In this document: positions 281 through 30,666 of the stretch, one piece after another
Position numbering within the stretch: the first letter of the stretch is position 1
How the letters are laid out: every line of letters starts with the position of its first letter
Notes under the pieces: model-generated
What the model was told of the DNA's origin: nothing
The model's database searches: none
The model's input: only the letters and a program-made list of their open reading frames with translations
Translations under genes and position numbers: made by a program
Source of the DNA: Chloroflexota bacterium
GTDB lineage: Bacteria > Chloroflexota > Anaerolineae > Anaerolineales > UBA11858
DNA: 35,913 bases
Direction of reading: 5' to 3'
Assembly: GCA_039714275.1 (NCBI GenBank)
Contig: JBDLJO010000003.1
Coordinates: 1-35,913, forward strand

Positions 281-628
281 TTAATCTTTTGGTAAGCCAA
301 CCTCAATTTGATCATTTCGAACCTGGACCGGATAAGCGGGAATGTCTTCAACGGCAGGTAGAGTTAATGCTGCACCGGTGCGTAAATCAAAACGAGCGCC
401 ATGCCGCGGGCAAATAATAACATGACCATCTAATGTGCCGTCATCCAAGGGTTCTTGATCATGACTGCAAAGGTCGGCGATGGCATAATAATCCCCTGCA
501 ATATTAAATACGATCACGTCAAGATCTCCAATTTCGAGATATAAACGTTCCCCGTTAGGCAGTTCATCTAACGAGGCAACAGCAATAAAATCGCAGTTCT
601 CGGAATCAAGTTCTTTATAGTTCATCAT
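281..628 (-). CDS. Rieske [2Fe-2S] ferredoxin (dioxygenase ferredoxin-subunit-like), last gene of suf operon
   Basis: CSH...CPRHGARFDLRTG Rieske motif; ATGA overlap with the sufU stop. Confidence 0.93.
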   Translation of the reverse strand: MMNYKELDSENCDFIAVASLDELPNGERLYLEIGDLDVIVFNIAGDYYAIADLCSHDQEPLDDGTLDGHVIICPRHGARFDLRTGAALTLPAVEDIPAYPVQVRNDQIEVGLPKD

Positions 629-1020
629 GCCACCAAATCATCGCTGGCTTCGCCAAGTCCATATACACCAGCTTTTAATACCTTCAGCGAGAGCAAAGCA
701 CACTTCAGGCGTACGGGGCCCAAATCTATACCCAGGAGTTCAAGTAAATCATCTTTGGTGAGTGCCTTCACTTCTTCCAGGGTTTTACCTTGGATGTGCT
801 CCAACAACAGGTCTGCAGAGGCCAGTGAAATTGAACAACCCTGACCGCTAAAAACAGCCTCGGTGACGATATCATGCTCATCGAGACGCAAATCCACACG
901 GATATGATCGCCGCAATATGGGTTATCATCTTCAAAGCTAATATCGGCAGGGTCAAGTTCGCCTTTATGCTGGGGATTCTTATAACGTTCAATAATCTGT
1001 TCGCGGAAGAGATCGTCCAT
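625..1020 (-). CDS. sufU: SufU/IscU-family Fe-S scaffold / sulfur-transfer protein
   Basis: NPYCGD, GQGCSISLASA and RLKCALL carry the three conserved Cys; directly follows sufS. Confidence 0.92.
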   Translation of the reverse strand: MDDLFREQIIERYKNPQHKGELDPADISFEDDNPYCGDHIRVDLRLDEHDIVTEAVFSGQGCSISLASADLLLEHIQGKTLEEVKALTKDDLLELLGIDLGPVRLKCALLSLKVLKAGVYGLGEASDDLVA

Positions 1021-2261
1021 TAGGCAAAGATTTCCTTTACTCGATAAATACCATCAACCAACTGGTCAACTTCTTCAAGGGTATTATATAAATAGAAACT
1101 GGCCCGAGCGGTAGCAGGGATTTGATATTTCGTATGCAGCGGCATGGCACAGTGGTGACCGGCACGCACAGCAATCCCAACTTCATCTAACATTTGGGAA
1201 ATATCGTGAGCATGGATGCCGGATAAGGTAAATGAAGCTACTGCACCCTTGTACTTGGCAGCCGGCCCAAAAATCGTGACGCCAGGAATTTCTTCCAAAC
1301 GGTCCAATAAATATGCCCCGATCACCTGCTCGTGCTGCTCAACATTTTCCATACCAAGGGCAGCAAGATAATCTACTGCCGCACCAAACCCAATCGCCTC
1401 AGCAATTGCGGGAGTACCTGCTTCAAATTTAAAGGGAAGCTCATTAACAGTAAACGAGCGTAATTCCACTCGCTTAATCATATCGCCACCACCCAAGAAA
1501 GGCGGCATCGATTCTAGTAAGGATTGGCGACCATATAAAATGCCAATCCCATTTGGGCCACACATTTTATGACCAGAGAAAGCCAGAAAATCGGCATCCA
1601 AGGCTTGAACATTTACAGGGATATGGGGGACAGACTGCGCAGCATCAACTAAGGCCAGGGCACCAGCTTCATGAGCCATTCGAATTATCTCAGCCGCAGG
1701 TGTGATCGTCCCCAGGACATTCGACATTTGTGTGAAAGCCACCAATTTTGGGTCCAGCTTTAATAATTGATCATAAACATCGAGATCCAAAAGTCCATCA
1801 GGTGTTGTTGGGATGAATTCTAAACGTAAATCCATCTCTGCCGCTAATATTTGCCAGGGCACCAAATTAGCGTGATGTTCCATCTCGGTCAGGATAATGA
1901 GGTCATCTTTTTCGAGATTGGCTCTACCCCATGTTTGGGCCACAAGGTTGATCGATTCTGTGGTATTGCGAGTAAATATAATTTGTCGATGGGAGGGCGC
2001 ACCAATAAAAGCGGCTATGCGAGCCCGAGCCGCCTCATAAGCTGCAGTAGATTCCTCGGCTAAGGCATGAATTCCACGATGGATGTTAGCATTTGACTGC
2101 CTGTAGTACTGATTCATCGCTTCAATCACCTGGCGCGGCTTTTGACTGGTAGCAGTAGAATCTAAATAAACTAAAGGCACGCCAGGACGTACTTCCCGCT
2201 CTAAAATCGGGAAATCCGCTCTAATTTTTAGCAGATCAAGAGAGGATGTTTTTTGTTTCAT
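1020..2261 (-). CDS. sufS: Cysteine desulfurase SufS (group II)
   Basis: YLDSTATSQKP, FSGHKM (PLP Lys), VRAGHHCA (catalytic Cys). Start moved to ATG 2261, which has AGGA upstream; the longer ORF start lies inside a hairpin. Confidence 0.96.
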   Translation of the reverse strand: MKQKTSSLDLLKIRADFPILEREVRPGVPLVYLDSTATSQKPRQVIEAMNQYYRQSNANIHRGIHALAEESTAAYEAARARIAAFIGAPSHRQIIFTRNTTESINLVAQTWGRANLEKDDLIILTEMEHHANLVPWQILAAEMDLRLEFIPTTPDGLLDLDVYDQLLKLDPKLVAFTQMSNVLGTITPAAEIIRMAHEAGALALVDAAQSVPHIPVNVQALDADFLAFSGHKMCGPNGIGILYGRQSLLESMPPFLGGGDMIKRVELRSFTVNELPFKFEAGTPAIAEAIGFGAAVDYLAALGMENVEQHEQVIGAYLLDRLEEIPGVTIFGPAAKYKGAVASFTLSGIHAHDISQMLDEVGIAVRAGHHCAMPLHTKYQIPATARASFYLYNTLEEVDQLVDGIYRVKEIFA

Positions 2262-2275
2262 TGATATCCTAGACC

Positions 2276-2311
2276 AAGAATGTGGCTTTATCTTACTCAA
2301 GCCACATTCTT
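2276..2311. terminator. 13-bp perfect hairpin between the small ORF and sufS
   Basis: AAGAATGTGGCTT (2276-2288), 10 nt loop, AAGCCACATTCTT (2299-2311). The U-tract on the transcribed (-) strand is weak. Confidence 0.5.
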
Positions 2312-2328
2312 TATATTACAGTATTAGA

Positions 2329-2601
2329 TTAGCGACGCCGCTTCTTTGGACGTCGGATGTTTGCTGATGCTTTGGGACACCAGAGCACGTGGTCTGGCAC
2401 CATCCATCCGTTGGTTAAATAAACATTTCTATGAAATTGAACTGCAACTAATTTTGCATCGACCTGGACAACAACACCATCCAGCCAATCACGCACACGT
2501 TCTTCGTGTTCATTTTCATGGTCACAGTTGACTTCAACAACATCACCAACTTTATATTCCCGTTTTAATTCGGGAGGGGATGTAAAGGGAAGACTTGCCA
2601 A
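2329..2601 (-). CDS. Hypothetical 90-aa protein, SH3/Tudor/KOW-like beta-barrel pattern, basic C-terminal tail
   Basis: TTG start with GGAGG about 5 nt upstream; YKVGDVVEV...WLDGVVVQVD..LVAVQF pattern; ends RRPKKRRR. Confidence 0.75.
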   Translation of the reverse strand: MASLPFTSPPELKREYKVGDVVEVNCDHENEHEERVRDWLDGVVVQVDAKLVAVQFHRNVYLTNGWMVPDHVLWCPKASANIRRPKKRRR

Positions 2602-2740
2602 TTCGACCTCCGTAAAACCTTTATATACTTTTTATCGAGTGCTTTTTTTACAGATTCCAGGGTATTGAGTAGGATATCCGACGATAAGGATTCTTAAAAA
2701 AAGCTCAAATTAATAATAGCGAATTATACGCTAAAAAATG

Positions 2741-4081
2741 CTACCGCGCCGCCATCTTTTTCGTGATTGCATCCTGGAAACGGGTCCGAACGCCCTCAAA
2801 GGGAATGCGCGCCATAATCGGATCAAAGAATCCCTCAACAATGATGCGCTCGGCCTCTTTTTTGGAAATGCCTCGGCTGCGCAAATAAAATATCAATTCC
2901 GGGTCAATCTTGCCAATCGTTGCTGCGTGTGTACAGCGCACATCATCAGCAAGAATCTCTAATCCGGGGATCGCATCCGCACGAGCATCATTGCTCAAGA
3001 CCAGGTTGCGGTTGGCTTGAAAGCCATCGGTTTGCTGAGCCTTGGGATCAACAAAGATCATGCCCTGCCAAACGGAACGACTGTCCTCAGATAAAGCACC
3101 TTTAAAAAGCAAATCGCTGGTGGTGTGATCAGCCATATGATTTTGTTGGGTATCATGATCCAAATGTTGCTTTCCATCTGTAAAATAGAAACCGGATACA
3201 CGCCCGTAAGCGCCGCTGCCTACCAAATCGAGATCAGTGAAGTTTTTGGTCAGCTGTGTTCCAATAGCGCCAAAAATCCAATCGAGATGCCCATCTTTTT
3301 CAACGCGGGCTCGTTCGTGTGTAAAGTTCCAAACATTATCACCCAACGATTGCAATTCAACAAAGCGTAAATTAGCATTTTTCCCAACATGAATCTCAAC
3401 AATGCCGTTATGCAAGGTTTGCCCACCGACACCATCTGGAGATGCGGTTTCATGCACGTAGGTCAATGAAGCACCATCTTCCAACCAAATAATAAGGTGA
3501 GAGAAATACGCTAATTCTTGACCCGCACCCCAAAGCACACTATGAAGCGGACGCTCGACCTGTACGCCGCGCGGCACATAGACAAAAACACCATTTTCAG
3601 TCAACGCGCCAGCCAGGGCTGCAAATTTACCCTCGGAAACCTTGACCACTTGACCTAAGGCCTGGCTAACTTGATCGGGGTAGGTTTGTGAAGCGGTTGC
3701 GAGGTCAGTAAAAATCACACCCTGATCCGCGAGATCAGCATCCAATGATTTTTTCATCCCATCTGGTAGGAGAGTAATTTGTCCTCCAGGATGATCATCT
3801 GTTAGAGGCTGCAGCAAATAATCTGGAATCGCTGGAAGGTCATTTGCATCGCCATCATTGGGAATGCGAAAGTTATTTTTAAGTCCGCGTAAATCCGTTC
3901 GACGCCAGGGCTCATCTTTGGTTGTGGGGTAAGGCAATTGTTCAAATGCCTTCCAGGCCTGGGCGCGGTAATCTGCCAAAACGCGACTGCCGTTAGAATC
4001 CGGAATCATTTCACCGGTGAAGGAAAACCCTTCAAATTTTTGCCTTGCTCTTGATTTTCGTTTTACTACTTTTGTGGTCAT
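2741..4081 (-). CDS. sufD: Fe-S cluster assembly protein SufD
   Basis: EPWRRTDL, PGLEILADDVRCTHAATIG, FYLRSRGI; follows sufB. Confidence 0.95.
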   Translation of the reverse strand: MTTKVVKRKSRARQKFEGFSFTGEMIPDSNGSRVLADYRAQAWKAFEQLPYPTTKDEPWRRTDLRGLKNNFRIPNDGDANDLPAIPDYLLQPLTDDHPGGQITLLPDGMKKSLDADLADQGVIFTDLATASQTYPDQVSQALGQVVKVSEGKFAALAGALTENGVFVYVPRGVQVERPLHSVLWGAGQELAYFSHLIIWLEDGASLTYVHETASPDGVGGQTLHNGIVEIHVGKNANLRFVELQSLGDNVWNFTHERARVEKDGHLDWIFGAIGTQLTKNFTDLDLVGSGAYGRVSGFYFTDGKQHLDHDTQQNHMADHTTSDLLFKGALSEDSRSVWQGMIFVDPKAQQTDGFQANRNLVLSNDARADAIPGLEILADDVRCTHAATIGKIDPELIFYLRSRGISKKEAERIIVEGFFDPIMARIPFEGVRTRFQDAITKKMAAR

Positions 4082-4083
4082 GA

Positions 4084-5493
4084 TTAACCTATCGACCCTT
4101 CCATCTGTAACTGAATCAGACGGTTCATTTCAATTGCATATTCCATTGGCAATTCTTTAACCAGCGGTTCAATAAAGCCGGAAACAATCATTGAGGTGGC
4201 TTCCTCTTCACTGAGACCGCGGCTCTTGAGATAGAAAAGTTGCTCTTCTCCTACTTTGGATACGGACGCCTCGTGTCCAATATCAACATCCTGATCGTCA
4301 ATTTCGATATAAGGATAAGTGTCTGAGCGAGAAGCTTCATCGAGTAAAAGGGCATCACAAACTACATTAGAGCGCACGTCCCCCTTTTCTTTATGAACCT
4401 TCAACAAACCACGATAAGAGGCGCGGCCGCCATCTTTACTGATTGATTTAGATACAATTTTGCTGCTCGTGTGCGGTGCAAAATGAATGATCTTGCCACC
4501 CGTGTCTTGATGTTGTCCTTTACCAGCAAAGGCCATTGAGAGAATTTCACCATGCGCCCCAGGTCCCATCAGATAACAGGAAGGGTATTTCATGGTCAAT
4601 TTTGAACCTAAATTTGCGTCAACCCACTCCATTGTGCCGCCCTCAGCTACTATTGCCCGCTGGGTTACTAAGTTATAAACATTATGAGACCAGTTTTGAA
4701 TAGTCGAGTAACGCACACGGGCATTCTTTTTGACAATGATCTCAATCACACCGCTGTGAAGTGAATCGGTAGTATAGGAAGGGGCAGTGCAGCCTTCAAC
4801 ATAATGAATTTGCGAGCCTTCATCGGCGATGATCAGCGTGCGTTCAAACTGCCCGATATTAGCTACATTGAGCCGGAAATAGGCTTGCAAAGGCAAATCG
4901 ATTTTCACGCCAGGGGGTACATAAACGAAAGAACCACCTGACCAGGCCGCGCTGTTCAGGGCTGCCAGTTTATTATCTTCAATGGGTACGACTGTGCCAA
5001 AATACTCACGGAAGAGCTCGGGATGTTTGCGCAGTCCATCTTCAATACTTACGAAAATTACGCCCTGCTCTTCAAGATGCTCCAAGATATTATGATAAAC
5101 CATCTCGGATTCGTATTGGGCACCTACACCGGCCAGGAATTTTTGCTCTGCTTCCGGGATGCCTAATTTATCAAAAGTATTTTTAATCGCATCCGGAATA
5201 TCATCCCAGGTCTGTCCCTCTCCATCTGTAGGTTTAACATAATAATAGATATCATCAAAATCGAGCGCTTCCAGATCGCCGCCCCAGTTGGGCATTTCGC
5301 GCTGCTGATAATGGGTTAAGGCTTTGAGACGAAAGTCCAACATCCATTCAGGTTCCCCTTTCATTTCAGAAATTTGTTTAACAATTTCCTCATCTAAGCC
5401 TTTGCGAGCTTTGAAAACATACGTCTCTGGGTCGCTAAAACCCCATTTATACTCGCCAACACCGTCCAGAATCTTAGCATCTGATGTGGTCAT
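4084..5493 (-). CDS. sufB: Fe-S cluster assembly protein SufB
   Basis: [48 protein letters not shown]; normal length, no intein. Confidence 0.97.
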
Positions 5494-5549
5494 ACTCTAC
5501 TCCAAGAAACACACTATCATTTAGATAGGTGAAATATTTATATCTCAAA

Positions 5550-6323
5550 TTAAACAGCATCGGCCGCGTATTTCTCGCGCACCCAATCATAGCCTTGCTC
5601 TTCAAGCACCAATGCTAAATCAGGGCCGCCGGATTCAACGATACGTCCATTTAACATGATGTGCACAAAATCGGGTTTGACATAATTTAGTATTCGCTGA
5701 TAGTGGGTAATGACAACAGCTGAAAAATCAGGACCCCGTAATGCATTAACCCCTTCAGCGACAATACGCAGAGCATCAATATCAAGTCCAGAGTCAGTTT
5801 CATCTAGGATTGCTACCTGCGGTTCTAATGTCGCCATTTGCAATACTTCGGCTCGTTTCTTCTCACCGCCAGAAAAACCTTCATTGAGGTAGCGTCCGGC
5901 AAAAACATGATCCATCTTAAGTAAATCCATTTTCTCTTTAAGTTTCTTGCGAAAAGCAGGAATCGGGATTCCTTTACTCTCAGGATTTTGGGCTTTTTCA
6001 CGGGCGTTTAATGCTGTACGCAAGAAATTCGCTACCGTAACCCCGGGGACTGCAACTGGGTATTGGAAAGCCAAAAATACGCCTAAATGGGCTCGTTCTT
6101 CTGGCTCTAATTCCAATATATTCTGGCCGTTAAACATCGCCTCCCCACCATTAATATCATATGTTGGGTGACCCATTAAAGCATATGCCAGGGTAGATTT
6201 TCCGGTTCCATTGGGACCCATAATGGCATGTATCTCCCCTGGGCGTACAGTGAGATCAAGTCCGCGTAAAATATGATTACCTTCTACGCTCACTTGTAAA
6301 TTTTTAATCGCTAACTCGGACAT
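5550..6323 (-). CDS. sufC: Fe-S cluster assembly ABC ATPase SufC
   Basis: GPNGTGKST Walker A, FSGGEKKR, LDETDSGLDIDAL, ITHYQRIL; AAGGAG RBS. Confidence 0.97.
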   Translation of the reverse strand: MSELAIKNLQVSVEGNHILRGLDLTVRPGEIHAIMGPNGTGKSTLAYALMGHPTYDINGGEAMFNGQNILELEPEERAHLGVFLAFQYPVAVPGVTVANFLRTALNAREKAQNPESKGIPIPAFRKKLKEKMDLLKMDHVFAGRYLNEGFSGGEKKRAEVLQMATLEPQVAILDETDSGLDIDALRIVAEGVNALRGPDFSAVVITHYQRILNYVKPDFVHIMLNGRIVESGGPDLALVLEEQGYDWVREKYAADAV

Positions 6324-6406
6324 CAGAGTAACTCCTTCTTGATGAAATTACGCACCAAAAATAATTTCATTTTTATATGCAATGTCTACTAAATTGAACG
6401 CCCGGC

Positions 6407-6435
6407 ATTATAGCAAGAAAGGTGGATTTCGTCAA
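6407..6435 (-). promoter_or_regulatory. Sigma70-type promoter of the suf operon
   Basis: Minus strand TTGACG (6435-6430), 17 nt spacer, TATAAT (6412-6407). Confidence 0.8.
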
Positions 6436-6462
6436 TATTTTATATATTTTTCATATATATTA

Positions 6463-6491
6463 TTGACATGATTTTTCGCGGATGGTATACT
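6463..6491 (+). promoter_or_regulatory. Sigma70-type promoter of sufR-sufT
   Basis: TTGACA (6463-6468), 17 nt spacer, TATACT (6486-6491) with extended TG. Confidence 0.8.
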
Positions 6492-6527
6492 GGCAGCATT
6501 ACCCAGGAAATAAATCAGGGTTCATTT

Positions 6528-7175
6528 ATGAGCAGTACTCGCGAAAAAGTTCAAAAAATACTCCTATCCCATCAACGCAGCACTATTAACGAATTGGCTG
6601 AAGCTGTTGGAATCAGCCCTATCTCAGTGCGTCACCACATCAATAAGCTTGAAGCCCTGGGTTTTGTAAGCTCTGAAGAGGAAAGGCATGGCGTTGGACG
6701 ACCGCGCAATGTTTATTTCCTCACAGAGAAAGGCCTTGAACAATTCCCTACTCGCTATTTGCGGTTAACAATACGGTTGCTGCAGCAGCTTAAGGAGACT
6801 CTACCTGAAAAAATGGTGGGGGAACTTTTTTCACAAATGGCCGGGGATATTGCCACAGATTTCGCATCTGAACTTGATCTTGATGAACTCTCGATAGAGA
6901 AGCGTCTTGATATTACAAGGGATTTGCTGAACGCAGAGGGCTTCACAATGGAGTGGGAAACCAAAGATGACGGTTACCACATCCACGAAGTAAATTGTCC
7001 ATACCATCATGTGGGGCAATCGCATCCCGAAGTGTGCGCAGTAGATGAAACCCTGATCTCAACCTTATTATCCGTCCCCGTCGAAAAAGTTAAATGTATC
7101 CTGGATGGGGATTCATTCTGCACATACGTTGTGCAAAACCTTAAAAATGAAGATGAAGAAAGGTTAGAAGCATGA
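6528..7175 (+). CDS. sufR: SufR-like Fe-S-sensing wHTH transcriptional regulator
   Basis: N-terminal HTH (TINELAEAVGISPISVRHHINKL...GVGRP..YFLT) and C-terminal C-X12-C-X19-C-X7-C; divergent from sufC. Start set to ATG 6528 because 6468 lies within the promoter. Confidence 0.85.
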   Translation: MSSTREKVQKILLSHQRSTINELAEAVGISPISVRHHINKLEALGFVSSEEERHGVGRPRNVYFLTEKGLEQFPTRYLRLTIRLLQQLKETLPEKMVGELFSQMAGDIATDFASELDLDELSIEKRLDITRDLLNAEGFTMEWETKDDGYHIHEVNCPYHHVGQSHPEVCAVDETLISTLLSVPVEKVKCILDGDSFCTYVVQNLKNEDEERLEA

Positions 7176-7519
7176 GCATTGTCCGCCCTCGCCCGGTTTG
7201 GAAAGTAACCCAAACACACCCCGAATTAGTAAGTCCACTTGACGAAGCATTTCGTCAAGTGATGGATCCAGAACTTGGTCTAAATATCATGGAGATTGGT
7301 CTTATTCGAGATGTTTCCATTGATAATGAAAATAACAGCTGCCATGTAATTATGATTATGACGACCCCCTTTTGCCCCTATGCTCCAGCACTACTTGAAA
7401 GTGCGCGCTCAAAAGCAGAGGGCGTGAGCGAAAAAGAAACCACCATTGAAATGGGTATGGAGCCTTGGGATCCCACTTATATGGAAGATGGGGTTGGCGC
7501 TGATTGGGGTTTATTCTAA
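7172..7519 (+). CDS. sufT: DUF59 / SufT (PaaD-like) metal-sulfur cluster assembly factor
   Basis: DPELGLNIMEIGLI...MTTPFCPY...EPW DUF59 motif; ATGA overlap with sufR. Confidence 0.85.
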   Translation: MSIVRPRPVWKVTQTHPELVSPLDEAFRQVMDPELGLNIMEIGLIRDVSIDNENNSCHVIMIMTTPFCPYAPALLESARSKAEGVSEKETTIEMGMEPWDPTYMEDGVGADWGLF

Positions 7520-17017: not shown

Positions 17018-17482
17018 TTATTCCCCTGCCTGAGGTGAATAATCCCCCTCCACCCATTTCTGCTTATCCGGACCCATTTCTTTCTTCCATACCGGGACAA
17101 TTTGCTTTAGGCGATCAATACCGTAATGTGCGGCTTCAAAAACGCCGGTATCACGATGAGCTGCTGTACAAGCAATCATTACTGTTGGCGTACCCGGAAA
17201 TAAGCGGCCCACCCTTTGAATCATGGCAATTCCCTCAACGGAAGGCCAACGTTCCCGAATTTCAACAGCAATTTGCTTCATCTTGGATTCTGCCATTGGA
17301 GCATATGCCTCGTATTCCAAGTAATCCGTTTGATATGGCTCCCCGCGCGTGGTTTTGGCACGCACCATTCCTGTAAAAAAGCACGCTGCTCCGGTAGATG
17401 GCAAAGTGATTTGCGATAATACATCGTTGAGATTTAGTTCATCTTCTGTGATTGAGAAAATCGTTGGAAAAACGGTCATCAA
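17018..17482 (-). CDS. moaE: Molybdopterin synthase catalytic subunit
   Basis: GAACFFTGMVR, LEYEAY.PMA, AHR, IDRLKQIVPVWKKE. Confidence 0.95.
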   Translation of the reverse strand: MMTVFPTIFSITEDELNLNDVLSQITLPSTGAACFFTGMVRAKTTRGEPYQTDYLEYEAYAPMAESKMKQIAVEIRERWPSVEGIAMIQRVGRLFPGTPTVMIACTAAHRDTGVFEAAHYGIDRLKQIVPVWKKEMGPDKQKWVEGDYSPQAGE

Positions 17483-17490
17483 TGATTCAA

Positions 17491-17751
17491 TTATCCTCCG
17501 CTGACCTGAGGAAAGATCGCCACTTCAGCACCATCAGGTATCAATGCTTCATCAGTAGCAAATTCACGATTGATTGAAAATAACGTTGCCTTCAGGGCTT
17601 GAGCCGCATGCGGGTATTGGGCACTTAATTGAGCACGCAAATCACGGACATGGCTACCTGGTTGAATTTCAAGATCCATTTTCCGTTCTCCAATCAGCGC
17701 TCGCATGGTGGCAAAAAGCAGCAAGGTAATCATATTCATGGATTCACTCAT
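17491..17751 (-). CDS. moaD: Molybdopterin synthase sulfur carrier subunit
   Basis: LLFATMR...IN.EF...[14 protein letters not shown] with terminal GG; lies between moaC and moaE. Exact start uncertain (17751, 17739 or 17733). Confidence 0.92.
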
Positions 17752-18226
17752 TAATGATATCTCCACTCTGCCCACCATGCTTCTTTAATACCCTGATGTT
17801 TGAAATACGCATTGTTTTCTCAACGGCTTTGGCCATATCAATAACGGTCAACGCGGCTGCAGAAACGGCGGTTAAAGCTTCCATTTCGACACCCGTTTTT
17901 GCAGTAGTGCGTACAGTAGCAGTAATGATGACACCAGGTAAATCATCATTGGGTTCAACAGTCACAAGTACCTGGTCAATTGGCAGCGGGTGACATAAAG
18001 GAATCAAATCTGCGGTGCGTTTTGCAGCCATGACACCAGCCAGCTGTGCCACCGTCAGCAGATCTCCTTTTTTAAGCGTGCCAGCCTGGATCAATGTTAA
18101 GGTCTCTGCACGCATATGAACTTCCCCCCTGGCAACAGCCATGCGCTCCGTAACTGGTTTGTGACCAACATCAACCATACGAGCGTGGCCAGACTCATCG
18201 AGGTGAGATAATTTATGGACAGTCAT
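17744..18226 (-). CDS. moaC: Cyclic pyranopterin monophosphate synthase accessory protein MoaC
   Basis: [44 protein letters not shown]. Confidence 0.97.
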
Positions 18227-22649: not shown

Positions 22650-22709
22650 TTGACATATCGACATTTATCTTTTAGTATACAGGCAGTCATATAGAAGGAT
22701 ATCGATATG
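22650..22709 (+). promoter_or_regulatory. ars promoter with two candidate ArsR operator sites
   Basis: TTGACA (22650-55), 17 nt spacer, TAGTAT; CATATCGA-N6-TCTTTTAG (22654) and CATATAGA-N6-TCGATATG (22688). Confidence 0.65.
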
Positions 22710-23012
22710 TCCAAGACATCTGTTAACCCAATTATTTTTGCAAAAGCCCTGGCCGATGAAACCCGTCAGAAAATTATGAGTCTTTGCTGCTGCAAATGGC
22801 TCAGTGTCAGCGAGATCGTTGAAGCAACCCATGTTTCTCAGCCCACTGTTTCGCATCATTTGAGCATTTTACGGGCTGCTAACCTGGTCAATTCGAGGCG
22901 CGATGGAAAGCAAGTATTCTACTCCCTCAATCAAGAGGCGATTGCTGCATCTTGTTGTCAATTGGCTGACGATTTTGCTCCAGAGATCGATCTTATCCTA
23001 AGCTCTCAATAA
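22707..23012 (+). CDS. arsR: ArsR/SmtB-family metalloregulator
   Basis: [11 protein letters not shown]...VSEI....[25 protein letters not shown]; CCC and CC clusters; upstream of acr3. Confidence 0.92.
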
Positions 23013-23077
23013 AAGGGGTCTTTTTTTACTCAAACACATCGAAATATATCTATGTGTCCATTCAGGAGAATTGCCAT

Positions 23078-24163
23078 ATGAACCAAACACAAACCAAAAG
23101 CCTGTCTTTTCTTGATCGCTTTCTTACCCTGTGGATTTTTCTGGCAATGGCCGTCGGGGTTGGCTTTGGCTATTTCTTCCCTGCCGCAGTCAGTGGTTTC
23201 AATAAAGCTGTTTCTGTAGGAACCACCAACATTCCAATTGCAGTAGGGTTGATCTTAATGATGTACCCTCCTCTGGCAAAGGTGCGCTATGAAGAACTTG
23301 GAGATGTCTTCCGAGATTGGAAAATTCTTGGCGTCTCTCTTTTACAAAACTGGGTCATTGGTCCGATGCTAATGTTTATATTGGCCATCCTGTTACTAAG
23401 AGATACGCCGAGTTATATGGTCGGCCTGATCTTGATTGGATTGGCACGCTGTATCGCGATGGTGATTGTCTGGAATGACCTGGCAAAAGGGGATACTGAA
23501 TATGCTGCCGGTTTGGTAGCTTTCAACAGTATTTTCCAGGTGCTCTTTTACAGTCTCTATGCTTATGTGTTCATCACTGTGCTGCCAACCTGGTTTGGGA
23601 TGGAAGGATCCCTGGTCGAAATCACCATCGGCGAAATCGCAAAAAGTGTATTCATTTATTTAGGAATCCCATTTATAGCCGGGTTCCTGACCCGCACCGT
23701 TCTGGTACGGATCAAAGGGAAAACATGGTACCACGAGAAATTTGTACCTAAAATCAGCCCCATCACTTTGATCGCATTATTGTTCACGATAATGGTTATG
23801 TTCAGCTTGAAAGGTGACTTGATCGTCGCTATTCCAATGGATGTTGTAAAAATAGCCATACCACTTGTGATCTACTTTGTTTTGATGTTTTTAATCAGCT
23901 TTTGGATGGGGCACAAACTTAATGCCGGTTACAAGAAATCAACAACCCTCTCTTTCACTGCTGCAAGCAATAATTTTGAGTTAGCGATTGCCGTAGCGAT
24001 TGCTGTTTTTGGAATCAATTCTGGAGAAGCATTTGCAGCTGTGATCGGACCGTTGATTGAAGTACCGGTCATGATCGGTTTGGTCAGTGTGGCGTTCTGG
24101 ATTCAACGGAAATATTTTGGGTTGGAAGTGAAAGGGATAGAAATTGATTGCCCGGCAGATTGA
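23078..24163 (+). CDS. acr3: ACR3-family arsenite efflux transporter
   Basis: [57 protein letters not shown]; start at ATG 23078 after AGGAG. Confidence 0.96.
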
Positions 24164-24220
24164 TTTTGAAACTGGAAGGTGGTGCACTGGTGTTATTGAA
24201 TTTATGAAGGAGAATTCCAT

Positions 24221-25078
24221 ATGAGCAGCGAGAAAATCTCGTTGGATATCCGCACGGCTGTGCGTGACCGTTATAGCAAAATCGCAGAAACCTTCGAACC
24301 TGGATCACATGCGGAACCCTGCTGCGGCACATCTCCGTGTTGCGGCGATGATAAAGATGCGTCTGTGCAGTTAGTGTCAGTTGAAAAACTATATCTAACC
24401 AAGGACGCAGCCGCCCTGCCTGATGATGTTACTGGACTATCATTAGGGTGCGGTGACCCGATCACGTTGGCAGCATTAAAACCTGGAGAAACTGTACTTG
24501 ACCTCGGTTCCGGCGGGGGCATTGACTGCTTTCTGGCTGGTCAGCAAGTTGGCCCGGAGGGCCGAGTGGTCGGCGTCGATATGACCCCCGCGATGATCAA
24601 AAAAGCGCGCGCTAACAAAGATAAATTAGGGGTGGAAAATGTTGAATTTCGATTGGGTGAGATCGAGCACCTCCCCATCCCTGATGGGTGTATAGATGTT
24701 ATCATTTCAAACTGCGTGATCAATCTCAGTCCAGACAAACCGCAGGTTTTCCATGAGGCCTGGCGCGTGCTGCGCCCCGGCGGCAAGTTGGCAGTCAGCG
24801 ATATGGTCACAGATGGACCACTGCCCGATGCAATTAAATCCAGTATAAGTGCCTGGGCTGGATGTGTTGCTGGGGCGCTGGACATCGGTGATTATCTGTC
24901 GGGAATAGAGGCGGCTGGATTCGTGGATGTTAAAATAGTCCCCGTATATTTGGATCACGAATTCATCGATGAAGCGGTACAGGAGTTGGGAGGAACGATC
25001 AATTTAAGTGGTATGCCGCAAGATACGATTTATAAAGCGGTATTCAGCGCAAAGATCACAGCATATAAACCAGCTTAA
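24221..25078 (+). CDS. arsM: Arsenite S-adenosylmethionine methyltransferase
   Basis: N-terminal CC, SLGCGDP, VLDLGSGGGIDC, ISNCVINL, WAGCVAGA (conserved ArsM cysteines). Confidence 0.93.
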   Translation: MSSEKISLDIRTAVRDRYSKIAETFEPGSHAEPCCGTSPCCGDDKDASVQLVSVEKLYLTKDAAALPDDVTGLSLGCGDPITLAALKPGETVLDLGSGGGIDCFLAGQQVGPEGRVVGVDMTPAMIKKARANKDKLGVENVEFRLGEIEHLPIPDGCIDVIISNCVINLSPDKPQVFHEAWRVLRPGGKLAVSDMVTDGPLPDAIKSSISAWAGCVAGALDIGDYLSGIEAAGFVDVKIVPVYLDHEFIDEAVQELGGTINLSGMPQDTIYKAVFSAKITAYKPA

Positions 25079-25372: not shown

Positions 25373-25975
25373 CTAATCGGAATTTGGTGTTTCTATAACA
25401 TCATATTTCGCTAAGTGCTGAATGATATCCAAGATTTCTGGGGCGAGTTCTTCAGATACATTTGCTTTACGCATAATGGCCGCGATGTGAATTGGATCAG
25501 CATTGGGGAACGGCAAATGATAGAGGAACAAACCTTGCGGTCGTGTCAAACTGATTTTGCGCTCTTTGCGATCTCGCCCTTTTCCAGTCCAAACCGAAAC
25601 ATGGCTGATATATTCACCACCGCGAGCCAGCGAGAAATTTGCTCCAGCATTCGACTTTTCTCGTATTTTTAAGGTCAAATCTTCGGGCATTTGCTCGCCC
25701 TGGATTTGGGTCAAGTCAATATCCATACGGATGTGCTCAACCTTAAGCGTGTAGCGGAAATAGGGGCGTTTTTTCTCGTAGACTTCTTGTTTTTCAAGGA
25801 TATCGAGAGCGGCTAACCCTTCAAGAAAATCTTGAGCAGTGCGGATATGGAGACCCAGGCGGGAAGCGGCTTCGGATGCAGAAATATCTTGATAATTAAC
25901 TAACAAGGTAAAGAAATCCTGTGCATAGTCTTTGGCAATGTAGCTGCCTAATTTCGCGGCTTTCTTGAAATCCAT
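25373..25975 (-). CDS. Hypothetical protein with N-terminal winged HTH and second C-terminal domain
   Basis: DISASEAASRLGLHIRTAQDFLEGLAALDIL..QEVYEKKRPYFRYTL wHTH pattern; GGAGG RBS. Confidence 0.8.
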   Translation of the reverse strand: MDFKKAAKLGSYIAKDYAQDFFTLLVNYQDISASEAASRLGLHIRTAQDFLEGLAALDILEKQEVYEKKRPYFRYTLKVEHIRMDIDLTQIQGEQMPEDLTLKIREKSNAGANFSLARGGEYISHVSVWTGKGRDRKERKISLTRPQGLFLYHLPFPNADPIHIAAIMRKANVSEELAPEILDIIQHLAKYDVIETPNSD

Positions 25976-25984
25976 GTCATCCTC

Positions 25985-26797
25985 CTAAGAAAACGGTCCA
26001 ACACGGACATCGTTCATACGATCGATAATTCGGACGCCCTCACCACGATGATAAGTTTCGATAAAATCAACAAAAAGGTTACCGAGTGAGGCACAAAGCT
26101 GGTCGAAAGAGAGCGCTTCTTTATATTCAAGATAATCACGATGTGAAATATTGACTGTGACATCCCCATCAAAACCGAAAGAAACCCAGGTTTCATCAGT
26201 ATAGTCATTTTTCAAACCCATCATAAATCCAAACTCTCGCCCCATCATAACGGGAACAAAGATAATTTTATCTTTGCCAAGATAGGAGACAGCGATCAAG
26301 TTTCGGCGAGCAAAATCGGAGAATTCCATGATTTGCTGTTTGCTAAATTCTACCTTGCCGCTGGGAAGTGGGCGAGGAGTGTACCCGTTGCCAGTCTCCT
26401 CAACAGGGACAGCGGCTAGTTCGAGGACCTCACGCCCACGCCACTTAAGTTTTTTAGTAGCAAAAATATAGATCAGCCAAACCAGAAAGATCACCAGGAG
26501 TAGTATTACAAACTTCATCATCGCTGGGGGATTGCCGCGATAGGCTGGATCCTCGAAATAAATCACGATACCAGCGAAGAAGAGATAAAGCACCGAGACC
26601 ATGAAATTGATATTCCCAGTCCGGAGCAGCGTAATAAGCATATAAACTGCAAATGCCCAAAAAAAGATCGCCAGAAAGGTGAATGCGGCTTCTTTGCCAA
26701 AGAAAATCCCCAAAAGCGCTGCGGTGATCAACGAGCTTATAGCAGGGATGAGGCCAGTAATCGATCGATCTGGTTTGAGTTTGTGGATGGTGAACAT
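25985..26797 (-). CDS. Hypothetical membrane protein (about 4 N-terminal TM helices plus a soluble C-terminal domain)
   Basis: Four hydrophobic segments in the first ~113 aa followed by KKLKWRGR; AGGAGG RBS. Confidence 0.8.
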   Translation of the reverse strand: MFTIHKLKPDRSITGLIPAISSLITAALLGIFFGKEAAFTFLAIFFWAFAVYMLITLLRTGNINFMVSVLYLFFAGIVIYFEDPAYRGNPPAMMKFVILLLVIFLVWLIYIFATKKLKWRGREVLELAAVPVEETGNGYTPRPLPSGKVEFSKQQIMEFSDFARRNLIAVSYLGKDKIIFVPVMMGREFGFMMGLKNDYTDETWVSFGFDGDVTVNISHRDYLEYKEALSFDQLCASLGNLFVDFIETYHRGEGVRIIDRMNDVRVGPFS

Positions 26798-27031: not shown

Positions 27032-27382
27032 ATGTCCTCGATCACCGTTAATGTTACATTATATGGACCTTTGGCCAAATTTGCAGGTGGCAAATATATT
27101 GCACAAAAGGATGTGGAATTAAAGGCTGATGTTAAAATTAGGGATCTGATGGATCACTTCAAAATCCCTTATGACCAAAAAAGCTATTTATTTATCAATG
27201 CTGTCTTATGTGATATGCCCGGGCTGCTGGCATCCCTGAATGAAGAATTGGAAAGCGGCGACCATGTAGGCATCTTTTCACTGCAGCACATGTGGCCTTA
27301 TCAATATCGTGACGGGATTCGTATGTCTGAAACACTCACAGAGACTTTACGAAATCACGGCGCGATGCACAACGTCTACTAA
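27032..27382 (+). CDS. MoaD/ThiS-like beta-grasp protein with C-terminal extension, no Gly-Gly
   Basis: VNVTLYGPLAKF...IRDLMDHFKIP...LFIN...LESGDHVGIF, then about 34 extra residues. Start moved to ATG 27032, downstream of the predicted promoter. Confidence 0.75.
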   Translation: MSSITVNVTLYGPLAKFAGGKYIAQKDVELKADVKIRDLMDHFKIPYDQKSYLFINAVLCDMPGLLASLNEELESGDHVGIFSLQHMWPYQYRDGIRMSETLTETLRNHGAMHNVY

Positions 27383-27414
27383 TTTATTAAAATAATCAGT
27401 TGATAAAGGAGCGT

Positions 27415-29175
27415 ATGATGGCAAAAAAGATTCTTCGTATCAATATGACCAACCTCAAGGCGACCTACGAGGACGTTCCCGAAAAATGGGCACGTTGGGC
27501 AGGCCGAGGATTGACCTCCGCGATTATTGTTGATGAGGTAGACCCCACCTGCCATCCACTAGGGCCAAATAACAAACTGGCCATCGCTCCTGGTTGGGTA
27601 TCGGGCAGCCCTGCGGCCCCCAGCAGCGGGCGCACCTCCTTTGGCGGTAAAAGTCCCCTGACGGGCGGCATCAAAGAAGCCAACTCAGGCGGCCTTTCCA
27701 GCCAAAAAATTGCAAAACTTGGCCTAGCTGCGATCATCCTTGAGGGGAAGCCCAAAGATGATAAATGGTACAGCCTATTCATCAATAACGATGGTGTGCA
27801 ATTTGAAGATGCCGCCGGCCTTATGGGTAAGGGTATGTATGAGATTGATACCCTGATGTGGGAGAAATACGCTAACAAACCTGCTGTCGTCGGTATCGGA
27901 CCTGTTGGTGAGATGAAACTCTCCAACGCCGGCATCTCTGTAAACGACCCCGAAAATGAGCCTGGCCGCTACGCTGGACGCGGCGGTCTCGGAGCCGTAA
28001 TGGGGGCTCGGGGTGTCAAAGTTATGGTAATCGATGATAAAGACGGTCCAGGCGTAGAAGTTGCCAATAAAGAACTCTTTACTGAGGGACGCAAAAAACT
28101 AACCGCAGCGATTGGTGCACACGACCTGACCAAGAAAGACGGTGGTCTGTGGACTTTTGGCACCAACGTTTTGATGAATATCATCAACGAGGCTGGTGGT
28201 TTGCCTACCCGGAACTTTAGCGCTGGTCAATTTGAAGGCGCGGCAAAGATCTCGGGAGAGGCTGTGGTAGAGAATATTGAAGCCCGCGGCGGTGTCGGCG
28301 CAATCCATCATGCCTGCCATCCGGGCTGCATTATGCAGTGCTCCAGTATTTACCCCCACGAGGACGGCACGCCTTTTGTTTCAGTTATTGAGTATGAAAC
28401 ATCCTGGGCGCTGGGCGCGAACTGCGGCATTGATGATATCGAGTATATTGCCCAGGCTACCCGCGAGTGCAACGACATCGGTCTAGATACCATCGAAGCC
28501 GGTAACACGATTGCCATTGCGATGGACGGTGGTTATATCGAATTTGGCGACACAAAAGGTGCGCTAAAAACCTTCGATGAAATTCGCAATGGAACGCCTC
28601 TTGGGCGTGTGCTGGGTCAGGGCGTAGAAGCGACCGCCAAAGCCTTTGGTGTGTATCGCGTCCCCACTGTGAAGGGACAATCGATGCCCGCCTATGAGCC
28701 AAGGGCGATCAAAGGTATCGGCGTGACCTATGCTACAACAGCGATGGGTGCAGACCATACATCGGGTTACACGATCGCGCCAGAGATTGCTGGGGTAGGC
28801 GGTAAAGTTGATCCGCTGACTGATGCCGATAAAGCAGGTCTTTCGCTGACCTTCCAAGCTGCGACTGCTTATATTGACAGCACAGGCTACTGCCTCTTCA
28901 TCGCATTCCCAATTCTTGACATTGCTGAAGGTTGGGCTGGAATGGCTGAATCCGTTGCAGGTGTGACTGGTCTCAATATGACTGGCGATGATGTGATCGA
29001 TATTGGCAAAGAGATACTCAAGATGGAGCGTCTCTTCAATGAAGCGGCTGGCTTTACTCCCGCTGATGATCGTCTACCAGAATTCATGCGTGATGAGGCT
29101 TTGCCTCCACATAATGTAAAATGGACCATGTCCAATGAAGATCTGGATGATGTTTATGCCTGGGTACACGAATAG
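27415..29175 (+). CDS. aor: Aldehyde:ferredoxin oxidoreductase family (tungstopterin, 4Fe-4S)
   Basis: KSPLTGGIKEANSGG, GRGGLGAVMG, LPTRNF, C-X3-C-X3-C (CHPGCIMQC), EYET, DIGLD, PAYEPR, GADHT, DSTGYC, DDRLP; AAGGAG RBS. Confidence 0.93.
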   Translation: MMAKKILRINMTNLKATYEDVPEKWARWAGRGLTSAIIVDEVDPTCHPLGPNNKLAIAPGWVSGSPAAPSSGRTSFGGKSPLTGGIKEANSGGLSSQKIAKLGLAAIILEGKPKDDKWYSLFINNDGVQFEDAAGLMGKGMYEIDTLMWEKYANKPAVVGIGPVGEMKLSNAGISVNDPENEPGRYAGRGGLGAVMGARGVKVMVIDDKDGPGVEVANKELFTEGRKKLTAAIGAHDLTKKDGGLWTFGTNVLMNIINEAGGLPTRNFSAGQFEGAAKISGEAVVENIEARGGVGAIHHACHPGCIMQCSSIYPHEDGTPFVSVIEYETSWALGANCGIDDIEYIAQATRECNDIGLDTIEAGNTIAIAMDGGYIEFGDTKGALKTFDEIRNGTPLGRVLGQGVEATAKAFGVYRVPTVKGQSMPAYEPRAIKGIGVTYATTAMGADHTSGYTIAPEIAGVGGKVDPLTDADKAGLSLTFQAATAYIDSTGYCLFIAFPILDIAEGWAGMAESVAGVTGLNMTGDDVIDIGKEILKMERLFNEAAGFTPADDRLPEFMRDEALPPHNVKWTMSNEDLDDVYAWVHE

Positions 29176-29188
29176 GCACTAAAGTTTA

Positions 29189-29228
29189 ACAGAGAGGCTT
29201 TCGTAATAAAATACGAAAGCCTCTCTGT
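29189..29228 (+). terminator. Hairpin / terminator after aor
   Basis: ACAGAGAGGCTTTCGTA / TACGAAAGCCTCTCTGT 17-bp perfect inverted repeat followed by AT-rich sequence. Confidence 0.8.
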
Positions 29229-29287
29229 ATTTAATTTATGCTTTCTCAAGCATCGCCGTCTGCGGAAATTTGTGATATAAAACAGCC

Positions 29288-29527
29288 ATGAAAGTTGAAG
29301 TGCGCGTCTTTGCCACCCTAAGAAAATATATGCCCGGATTTGGCATTGGGGAGCCAAAAATCGTTGAACTCGCTGATGGGACAACCTTTGCCGAGTTACG
29401 AGATCAGCTTGCGCTTCCTGCGGAGGAAGTGAAAGTGATCATGCGAAATGGACTGCAAGCAGACCTAAATGAACTGATCGCGGATGGCGACCGCATCGCC
29501 TACATCCCGGCTGTAGCAGGGGGATAG
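29288..29527 (+). CDS. MoaD/ThiS-family sulfur carrier with C-terminal GG
   Basis: MKVEVRVFATLRKY...DGDRIAYIPAVAGG. Confidence 0.92.
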   Translation: MKVEVRVFATLRKYMPGFGIGEPKIVELADGTTFAELRDQLALPAEEVKVIMRNGLQADLNELIADGDRIAYIPAVAGG

Positions 29528-29532
29528 GGAAG

Positions 29533-30318
29533 ATGGCCATCTTCCAACATTCGCTTTGGGGATTCGAGCTGACCTTCCCTGATGATTGGGCTCATCAAAA
29601 CAATGCTGACGCGGATGGATTTGCTAAAAACTCGGCAGTTTTCGATCAGGTTGACAGCGCGAATCAAGAAGCCGCACATTTGCTCGTGCGCGGCGAGTGG
29701 AATGGTTTTCGAGAACCCATCGCGCCACGCTGGAATCAACATATCACCAAATTATCCATCATGGTGGGTGCCAAGAAACTCGGCTCGTCACCCTTTAGTA
29801 TGGCCGGCGCTAACGGCTTTGAAGCTGAAATTCAAATGCCACAGCGTGAGAACCGCCGGCTGTGGACGGCCATCTTGGCGCGGGACACCGTAATCTTACA
29901 TCTAATGGTCTCGCACCCCAGAGAAGAACGTGATGATTTTGAGCCGCTGGCAACTCAGATCATTGCCAGCCTGCGCTTTGTGGATCGAATCGATAATCTC
30001 GCTGCAACCGCAGAAGGCATTCCACTGCCGCCGGGTTATTCCCCTGTGGACCCCGCCAGTATTATTCCGGACGCACAAGATGGTAACAATTGGAGTGCCT
30101 ATGATGGGAAAAGCGGGATCGGCGCATTGCAAGCTTTTTTCTATCGAGAACTGCCCCATTACGGTTGGGATATCCAGGAATTTATCCCCTACCCAAATCA
30201 TGTTGATATCCATTTTGGCCGTCTGCGCATCCATAAAGACGACCTGACCGCCACACTTGGCATTATCCCCAATGGAGAAAAGGAAAAACTAGGGGAGCTT
30301 GTCATTAAGTTTGAGTAG
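29533..30318 (+). CDS. Hypothetical 261-aa protein, N-terminal PsbP/Mog1/DcrB-like pattern
   Basis: Long ORF 5 nt after the Ubl gene; starts F.H..WGFELTFPDDW and the domain ends ..QIIASLRF; second domain IPLPPGY...FFYRELPHYGW. The fold is an inference. Confidence 0.7.
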   Translation: MAIFQHSLWGFELTFPDDWAHQNNADADGFAKNSAVFDQVDSANQEAAHLLVRGEWNGFREPIAPRWNQHITKLSIMVGAKKLGSSPFSMAGANGFEAEIQMPQRENRRLWTAILARDTVILHLMVSHPREERDDFEPLATQIIASLRFVDRIDNLAATAEGIPLPPGYSPVDPASIIPDAQDGNNWSAYDGKSGIGALQAFFYRELPHYGWDIQEFIPYPNHVDIHFGRLRIHKDDLTATLGIIPNGEKEKLGELVIKFE

Positions 30319-30345
30319 AAATTCTCTAGTCTTTGGAAAATTCTT

Positions 30346-30666
30346 ATGATCACCATTCACCTGTACGGAAAACTGCGGCGATATGCTGCCAACAACAGCC
30401 CCTCGGCTAACAGCATTATTGAACTTGAAGCGATTGAGAATGAAACACTGCAAATGCTGCTGGGACGCGTCGGGATCAATATCAGCGAACTTTATACCAT
30501 TTTCTTAAATTCCAAACTGCTTACTTCGCGCACAAAGATAGCTCCATTTTTAGGATATCAGCAAGTCTGCGAGGAAAATTGCCAGACCTGGGATTTAAAT
30601 ATCGTGATCTCAGATGGTGATCGGGTAGGGTTGTTCGGACCAGATATGCCTGCATTGGTTGCATAA
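30346..30666 (+). CDS. MoaD/ThiS-like beta-grasp protein with internal insertion, no Gly-Gly
   Basis: ITIHLYGKLRRY...ETLQMLLGRVGI...IFLNSKL...ISDGDRVGLFG; ends PDMPALVA. Confidence 0.75.
   Translation: MITIHLYGKLRRYAANNSPSANSIIELEAIENETLQMLLGRVGINISELYTIFLNSKLLTSRTKIAPFLGYQQVCEENCQTWDLNIVISDGDRVGLFGPDMPALVA

Follow-up and report, generated by a model that had tools for sequence, protein, structure and literature searches.

Tungsten enzymes of the AOR family reduce unactivated acids and are sought as biocatalysts (PMC9295118). Genes for MoaD-like proteins next to aor were catalogued in 2006 by Iyer, Burroughs and Aravind as a "tungsten cofactor biosynthesis" neighbourhood (PMC1779556; also PMC2948915). 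In Aromatoleum aromaticum the operon aorABCDE encodes the MoaD-like proteins AorD and AorE, putative maturation factors that the purified enzyme does not contain (PMC6365974), and aorD/aorE lift the activity of the recombinant AOR from 4.5 to 16 U/mg (PMC9295118). In Thermococcus kodakarensis TK1065 is located between aor and a gene of the radical S-adenosylmethionine (SAM) type, the deletion of ubiquitin-like proteins (Ubls) reduces AOR activity, and the authors regard the link of specific Ubls to apo-enzymes as unknown (PMC11323500). Here we analyse an aor operon with three Ubls, two of which lack the terminal Gly-Gly (GG), in a stretch of 35,913 nucleotides from a Chloroflexota bacterium (contig JBDLJO010000003.1, forward strand; hereafter the window). 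One of the GG-less proteins, Ubl-A, is a candidate adaptor for the insertion of the AOR cofactor in Anaerolineae of the sediment type. The labels Ubl-A, Ubl-B and Ubl-C are those of a first-pass annotation and have no relation to the UblA/B/C names used in Thermococcus. The relevant features of the window are:

27032..27382, plus strand: Ubl-A, 116 aa, GG-less beta-grasp protein
27418..29175, plus strand: aor, 585 aa, AOR-family oxidoreductase
29189..29228, plus strand: stem-loop of 17 pairs, followed by an AT-rich tract
29288..29527, plus strand: Ubl-B, 79 aa, MoaD/ThiS family, C-terminus VAGG
29533..30318, plus strand: 261-aa conserved protein, function unknown
30346..30666, plus strand: Ubl-C, 106 aa, beta-grasp protein without GG, insertion of 23 aa, C-terminus ALVA
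17018-18226: moaC-moaD-moaE cluster, MoaD C-terminus VSGG

Comparison with described systems

The locus shares with the 2006 neighbourhood the strict adjacency of a MoaD-like gene and aor apart from the housekeeping moa cluster, a pattern into which Ubl-B fits, and relatives likewise have moeB, moaA and moaE nearby. The catalogued genes are, however, ordinary MoaD carriers, and the available parts of both surveys (PMC1779556, PMC2948915) mention neither GG-less families with an invariant tail nor the 261-aa protein. Several MoaD-like genes per aor operon are also found in Aromatoleum, but its enzyme has Fe-S and FAD subunits, neither of which is encoded in the window operon; the parallel with AorD and AorE is drawn from their published descriptions. 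The clustering of aor, Ubl and radical SAM genes recurs in Thermococcus, whose Ubls are described as di-glycine sulfur carriers and protein modifiers, in contrast to Ubl-A and Ubl-C without a terminal Gly-Gly. TmoB exemplifies a non-conjugating beta-grasp protein that acts non-covalently. A ubiquitin fold that binds non-covalently without a reactive Gly-Gly is also known from the Rnf chain 8ahx_H and from UBL5/Hub1 (PMC8431670), but all of these proteins have other partners, and no sequence-level match between them and Ubl-A or Ubl-C was found. Descriptions of GG-less AOR-linked Ubls were not found in the literature searched, which covered few subscription papers and no bioRxiv supplements. 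The operon is a conserved accessory system that is built on the known aor-MoaD neighbourhood.

Families, folds and tails of the ubiquitin-like proteins

The gene order given by the first-pass annotation (Ubl-A, aor, hairpin, Ubl-B, 261-aa gene, Ubl-C) agrees with the coordinates above, and all motifs that it had listed as common to Ubl-A and Ubl-C were found (LYGPL/LYGKL, FINAVL/FLNSKL, SGDHVGIF/DGDRVGLF). GG is present at the C-terminus of Ubl-B only and absent past the last strand of Ubl-A and Ubl-C, and the separate moaD noted near 17.5 kb is indeed part of moaC-moaD-moaE; its product reaches 57.9 bits for TIGR01682, under the cut-off of 66.15, yet the gene is located between moaC and moaE. 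The attribution of a MoaD/ThiS pattern to all three Ubls requires a distinction. On the profile level it applies to Ubl-B alone, which has the PF02597 match (41.3 bits, cut-off 22.5) and the terminal GG of a MoaD/ThiS carrier without being a canonical MoaD equivalog (21 bits for TIGR01682). From its sequence Ubl-B is expected to be the AOR-linked sulfur carrier. Ubl-A and Ubl-C are without a Pfam match at E 0.01 and without an NCBIfam match at E 1, and neither of them classifies as a sulfur carrier by PF02597, TIGR01682 or TIGR01687.

For Ubl-A and Ubl-C the likeness to MoaD is one of fold. Their AlphaFold2 models (mean predicted local distance difference test score 87.8 for Ubl-A, with a 120-homologue alignment, and 87.5 for Ubl-C, with an 85-homologue alignment) both adopt the beta-grasp fold that the first-pass annotation had anticipated, and MoaD chains are the top fold matches of both. 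The best match of Ubl-A is 6jbz_B (E 4e-4), that of Ubl-C in Foldseek is 1nvi_D (E 6e-3, probability 1.00), and Ubl-A is superimposable on 1vjk_A over 73 aligned residues (VIA Z 9.7, root-mean-square deviation 2.0). The beta-grasp chain 8ahx_H of the Rnf complex ranks below the MoaD chains, and no AOR-family chain is among the fold matches listed for either model. In the comparisons of Ubl-A with 1fm0_D, 2q5w_D and 1f0z the final residue of the carrier aligns at residue 91, and the segment W88-P-Y-Q-Y-R-D-G95 therefore starts at the position of the reactive MoaD tail.

This segment is part of a near-invariant tail, F82-S-x-x-H-M-W-P-Y-Q-Y-R-D-G95, that precedes a predicted helix. The best 120 of 389 Ubl-A homologues, the number that was examined, all retain F82, S83, P89, Y92, R93, D94 and G95, in a sample that leans towards close relatives through the search patterns and the ranking. 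A terminal GG occurs in none of these 120 proteins, in none of the 89 Ubl-C homologues and in none of the 141 Ubl-A open reading frames from the retrieved loci, two of which contain an internal YRGG in the tail. The C-termini of homologues and locus reading frames led us to reject a hidden GG that is freed by JAB trimming, and the claim of the first-pass annotation that the GG-less pair cannot serve as standard sulfur carriers, even after such trimming, is supported.

The missing Pfam and NCBIfam matches might also be expected of decayed, functionless MoaD copies. The existence of 389 and 89 homologues, the invariant tail residues and the low rate of nonsynonymous change (pN 0.11-0.33) at near-saturated synonymous sites (pS 0.58-0.94), observed in seven of seven locus comparisons of Ubl-A and Ubl-C, speak against decay, to which we assign virtually no probability; it was rejected on the basis of the invariant tails and of purifying selection, under which both proteins stand according to these codon comparisons. 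Degeneration, the outcome that GG-ending homologues would have indicated, is likewise not what the Ubl-A homologues and locus reading frames document.

Ubl-A and Ubl-C, introduced as paralogues by the first-pass annotation, are homologous (hhalign 98.2%), but they share just 23% identity, their tails differ, and the insertion relative to Ubl-B comprises about 7 aa in Ubl-A and about 23 aa in Ubl-C. Given these differing insertions, they represent separate families rather than the products of a recent duplication. None of their cysteines is invariant (Ubl-A Cys60 in 86/120; Ubl-C Cys75 in 52/89 and Cys79 in 70/89), hence Ubl-A is not an Fe-S electron-transfer subunit; a role of this beta-grasp ferredoxin type was rejected for want of a conserved set of Cys ligands. 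The mutual-information analysis of paired AOR and Ubl-A sequences (80 pairs, effective number 30) had a top z of 6.9, compared with 6.5-7.9 in five shuffles. Ub-Mut7C (PF14451) is matched by Ubl-B with 26 bits (cut-off 23) and by short Ubl-C relatives with 34 and 45 bits, and not by Ubl-A or Ubl-C. Fusions to a Mut7-C RNase were not found: all three Ubls stand alone (79-116 aa), and a length-free homologue search yielded nothing longer than 206 aa.

Two more forms were observed besides these families. One operon with an ordinary Ubl-A carries a divergent second copy without WPYQYR between a GG-Ubl gene and moaA (L037:11346-11714), and yet another GG-less beta-grasp type, whose tail reads IPEDVAALWRYL, is encoded downstream of an aor gene at a distance of about 1.2 kb, on the opposite strand (L207:3464-3835).

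The AOR enzyme and its co-occurrence with GG-less proteins

The AOR scores 193.8 bits for AFOR_N and 277.2 bits for AFOR_C, both above cut-off, and it matches the structures 9mqx_D (E 1e-96) and 1aor_A (E 1.6e-81). Eighty aligned relatives all keep Cys300, Cys304, Cys308 and Cys492, the EYE motif at 325-327 and His447, and these residues align with 1aor_A, the first Cys spacing being CX3CX3C in the window and CX2CX3C in 1aor. We take the conserved cysteines to be [4Fe-4S] ligands and the Glu and His residues to form the active site. The sequence thus marks a likely tungsten-pterin enzyme. In the AOR tree it is placed in a subclade that is characterised by an upstream Ubl-A and usually by the 261-aa gene, and other AOR subclades pair with different GG-less types or with several at once.

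The distribution was assessed in 301 Anaerolineae genomes, with matches of at least 52% identity defining the AOR subfamily. Strong matches to Ubl-A are present in 72 of these genomes, about a quarter; two genomes with partial matches (G200, G295) were not scored positive. The AOR subfamily is found in 63 of the 72 genomes with Ubl-A and in 22 of the 229 others. Most of these 22 genomes encode GG-less members of the Ubl-C family instead, whose tails read, for example, FPDDMQLLYKWYF or FPRNMGMLYC and whose genes often directly adjoin aor. When both families are counted, 80 of the 85 genomes that contain the AOR subfamily encode a GG-less Ubl, as compared with 13 of the 216 that do not, and the AOR subfamily is found in 34 of the 41 genomes that encode the Ubl-C family.

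Genomic neighbourhood of Ubl-A and its second subtype

We kept 80 of the 99 genome loci found for Ubl-A, 79 of them from Chloroflexota and one on a short contig in an archaeal bin (L019, 3.7 kb), which we do not take as evidence of archaeal occurrence. In 78 of these loci aor is the next gene downstream. They furthermore contain a GG-ending Ubl (69), the 261-aa gene (61), moaA (21), a gene for a TIGR04317-related radical SAM protein (18; the two that were scanned are below the cut-off) and Ubl-C (16), and moeA, moeB and tungstate transporters of the TupAB/WtpAB type are recurrent neighbours. The 261-aa protein, whose gene is typical of the window AOR subclade, represents a conserved family of 151 homologues, not covered by a Pfam model, with invariant E55, N57, W67, R109, W111 and H128. 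It has no PDB sequence match at E 5 and no consistent Pfam match across 36 members; a PsbP/DcrB-like nature (Atlas DcrB score 0.82) is a weak lead. In 11 loci that belong to one subclade, among them L030:952-2244, a DUF6976 gene was observed upstream of the module, and in 20 loci a sensor histidine kinase accompanies the module of this subclade.

A wider profile revealed a second Ubl-A subtype with the tail SMWPFQYRHG. It makes up most of 59 further loci, which contain aor (38), a radical SAM gene (24), moaA (9) or at least one of the three (48). The second subtype is placed at the end of operons of the order aor, radical SAM, GG-Ubl, or beside moaA away from aor; it directly adjoins the GG-Ubl gene in 31 of the 59 loci, and three of three radical SAM proteins scanned from its loci exceed the TIGR04317 cut-off. 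GG-less and GG-ending domains are also fused in two natural proteins (P0335, P0391), which document both domain orders.

The adjacency to GG-Ubl genes, the domain fusions and the location of the Ubl-A tail at the MoaD tail position are all compatible with an action of the GG-less proteins on the sulfur relay, where they would pair with Ubl-B or occupy MoeB/MoaE as non-reactive mimics and thereby shield the thiocarboxylate or steer it to the tungsten branch. In the window subclade, however, aor and the hairpin separate Ubl-A from Ubl-B, and the co-occurrence follows one AOR subfamily, whereas MoeB and MoaE serve every pterin enzyme. We therefore consider a role in the relay improbable.

The radical SAM genes raise the question of whether the TIGR04317-type enzyme acts on the aromatic tail of Ubl-A, the beta-grasp domain serving as leader, and so yields a cross-linked peptide or a peptide-derived cofactor that AOR uses. 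Radical SAM/SPASM enzymes related to this type modify peptides, the Ubl-A tail is rich in invariant W, Y and R, the genes share an operon in the 24 loci mentioned above, and a maturase above 355 bits is present in 45 of the 72 genomes with Ubl-A and in 11 of the 229 without it. The window operon, on the other hand, has no radical SAM gene, relatives of it are present in only 18 of the 80 subclade loci, the two scanned being sub-threshold, and the AOR-linked radical SAM gene of Thermococcus is paired with one of three Ubl genes of the MoaD/ThiS type (PMC11323500). A modification of the tail is accordingly very unlikely. The same low standing applies to the far-reaching version in which GG-less Ubls are enzyme-specific address labels for the delivery of the tungsten cofactor and the Ubl-A tail is converted by the radical SAM enzyme into a cross-linked peptide or cofactor required by AOR.

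Transcript layout

The hairpin after aor (z -7.1) is more stable than its shuffled versions, none of 200 being equally stable, and it is a likely terminator or mRNA-stabilising element. In a survey of equal 90-nt windows past stop codons, those of Ubl-A often entering the aor coding sequence, strong hairpins were found after aor in 42/67 cases, after Ubl-A in 2/80, after the GG-Ubl gene in 25/64, after the 261-aa gene in 7/60 and after Ubl-C in 2/13. From this placement we infer that Ubl-A would be made at a level similar to that of AOR and the genes past the hairpin at a lower one.

The layout is of relevance for the alternative that the mature AOR permanently contains Ubl-A as a small subunit whose aromatic tail and helix pack on the large one, in the way that other beta-grasp proteins belong to redox complexes. 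The rarity of strong hairpins between Ubl-A and aor and their frequency after aor would suit such a complex, and so would the private surface-type residues of the window AOR subclade, which include several Trp, the occurrence of Ubl-A in all tree loci of this subclade except one whose contig ends inside aor (L187), and the Rnf chain among the fold matches. The second subtype nevertheless often follows the genes for the radical SAM protein and the GG-Ubl, or adjoins moaA at a great distance from aor, and related AORs employ other GG-less types or several together; for these two reasons we favour maturation over a subunit. The MoaD-like gene products of Aromatoleum are missing from the purified enzyme (PMC6365974), and the lack of an invariant Cys excludes an Fe-S electron-transfer subunit. 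A permanent subunit is hence unlikely, but it is the alternative to be taken most seriously.

Ubl-C, a wider and looser family

Ubl-C, for which 89 homologues were found, carries the hydrophobic end F-G-x-D-M-x-x-L-V-[AVI] and belongs to a GG-less family that is distinct from and wider than that of Ubl-A. Among the 80 metagenome loci that were kept of 209 found, 18 contain aor, namely 15 of 27 close and 3 of 53 distant ones; eight more close loci are short contigs with the 261-aa gene, so that aor or the 261-aa gene is present in 23 of 27. The linkage of homologues to aor that the first-pass annotation had made a test of its proposal is thus evident for Ubl-A and looser for Ubl-C. The same applies to its maturation module, which is supported by the association of relatives with TIGR04317-type radical SAM genes, moaA, moeA, moeB and tungstate transporters, less tightly so for Ubl-C. 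The rarity of aor in distant loci weighs against a single fixed module that comprises both Ubl-A and Ubl-C.

Ubl-C may instead work outside AOR maturation, as a methyltransferase partner or as a protease-targeting adaptor via its hydrophobic end, and be recruited to the aor operon only sometimes. Such a function would account for the absence of aor near distant homologues (50/53, and 19/20 hand-picked loci) and for a methyltransferase gene as recurrent neighbour, and C-termini of the ALVA, ALVV or ALVI kind resemble ssrA-type degradation tags. It is opposed by the genome counts, with the AOR subfamily in most genomes that encode the Ubl-C family, by short family members that adjoin aor directly and by the three distant loci that come back to aor, and it offers nothing on Ubl-A. 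We rate it as distinctly improbable.

Several observations concern the termini and neighbours of this family. The end of Ubl-C in the window (30655-30666) reads ALVA, and homologues end in ALVV, ALVI or GLVV. Stand-alone homologues often lie beside a class I SAM methyltransferase gene (L292:3253-4347, L293, L297, L303, L307, L308, L309, L239), and the methyltransferase has a weak match to NF051855 under the cut-off. A tandem pair of GG-less Ubl-C-family proteins followed by a GG-Ubl is present in L170:6841-7725, L174, L176, L177, L178 and L189, directly after aor except in L189, a short contig without visible aor. One of the tandem types has Leu-Tyr-Cys as its last residues (Val in L189), which may provide a terminal thiol, and the GG-Ubl of these loci, again except L189, carries extra residues past GG.

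Proposed role as a maturation adaptor

Ubl-A has very probably some role in the tungsten-AOR pathway, and for Ubl-C such a role is somewhat more probable than its absence. With regard to the nature of this role, we tentatively favour, at slightly less than even chances, that Ubl-A is a non-covalent, AOR-dedicated adaptor for cofactor insertion that would bind the enzyme. This proposed adaptor function is suggested by sequence, fold models, missing GG, selection, linkage and the natural domain fusions, and AorD and AorE of Aromatoleum are a precedent for it. In the proposed pathway the housekeeping MoaC/MoaD/MoaE enzymes would supply the pterin, and Ubl-B, its GG activated by an E1 of the MoeB type, would donate sulfur as thiocarboxylate. 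Ubl-A, for which adenylation of a terminal glycine should be impossible, would dock its WPYQYRDG tail onto apo-AOR, the Ubl-B machinery or both, and would bind the cofactor-free AOR during completion and insertion of the predicted tungsten-pterin cofactor. The docking would result in an enzyme-specific loading of the cofactor, and Ubl-C and its relatives may represent alternative or additional adaptors of this kind that use another tail.

Several results weigh against the adaptor. In the window subclade Ubl-A and aor lie on the same side of the hairpin, an arrangement that is just as compatible with a stoichiometric, permanent subunit. Neither an AOR-subfamily match in 9 of the 72 genomes with Ubl-A nor a complete GG-less Ubl in 5 of the 85 AOR-subfamily genomes was found, in both cases in incomplete genomes, and the genome counts as a whole ignore kinship and are drawn from genomes that are incomplete. 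Eleven of the 59 further Ubl-A loci contain no aor, radical SAM gene or moaA in the retrieved DNA. In the case of Ubl-C, aor was seen in the retrieved DNA of just 3 of 53 distant loci and in 1 of 20 hand-picked genome loci, which had been chosen away from known aor positions, and SAM methyltransferases account for 7 of the 20 neighbours scanned (73 listed) from these hand-picked loci. In Aromatoleum, finally, the tungsten content fell from 1.06 to 0.39 with aorDE alone and increased only when tungstate was added (PMC9295118).

Other features of the window

The remaining gene sets of the window are:

281-7519: SUF-type Fe-S assembly cluster with sufC, sufB, sufD, sufS, sufU and a Rieske ferredoxin
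22707-25078: arsenic-resistance set, each member scoring above its NCBIfam cut-off: ArsR regulator, ACR3 efflux transporter, arsenite methyltransferase
25373-26797: gene pair in divergent orientation to Ubl-A, for a 270-aa membrane protein without family and a 200-aa weak helix-turn-helix protein

The SUF cluster is accompanied by a divergent helix-turn-helix regulator and a PF01883 gene. The divergent pair at 25373-26797 is absent from all 80 Ubl-A loci and thus lies outside the module; a sigma-70-like promoter with 11/12 matches (26875-26847) is directed at it.

Significance

Ubl-A is present in about a quarter of the Anaerolineae genomes sampled, as shown above, but its family is without a Pfam or NCBIfam model, and its members are annotated as MoaD/ThiS or hypothetical proteins. 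The ubiquitin fold appears to have been reused here, with the reactive end swapped for an invariant tail that is predicted to bind. The Ubl-A and Ubl-C families are small candidates for the delivery of the tungsten cofactor to a particular apo-enzyme.

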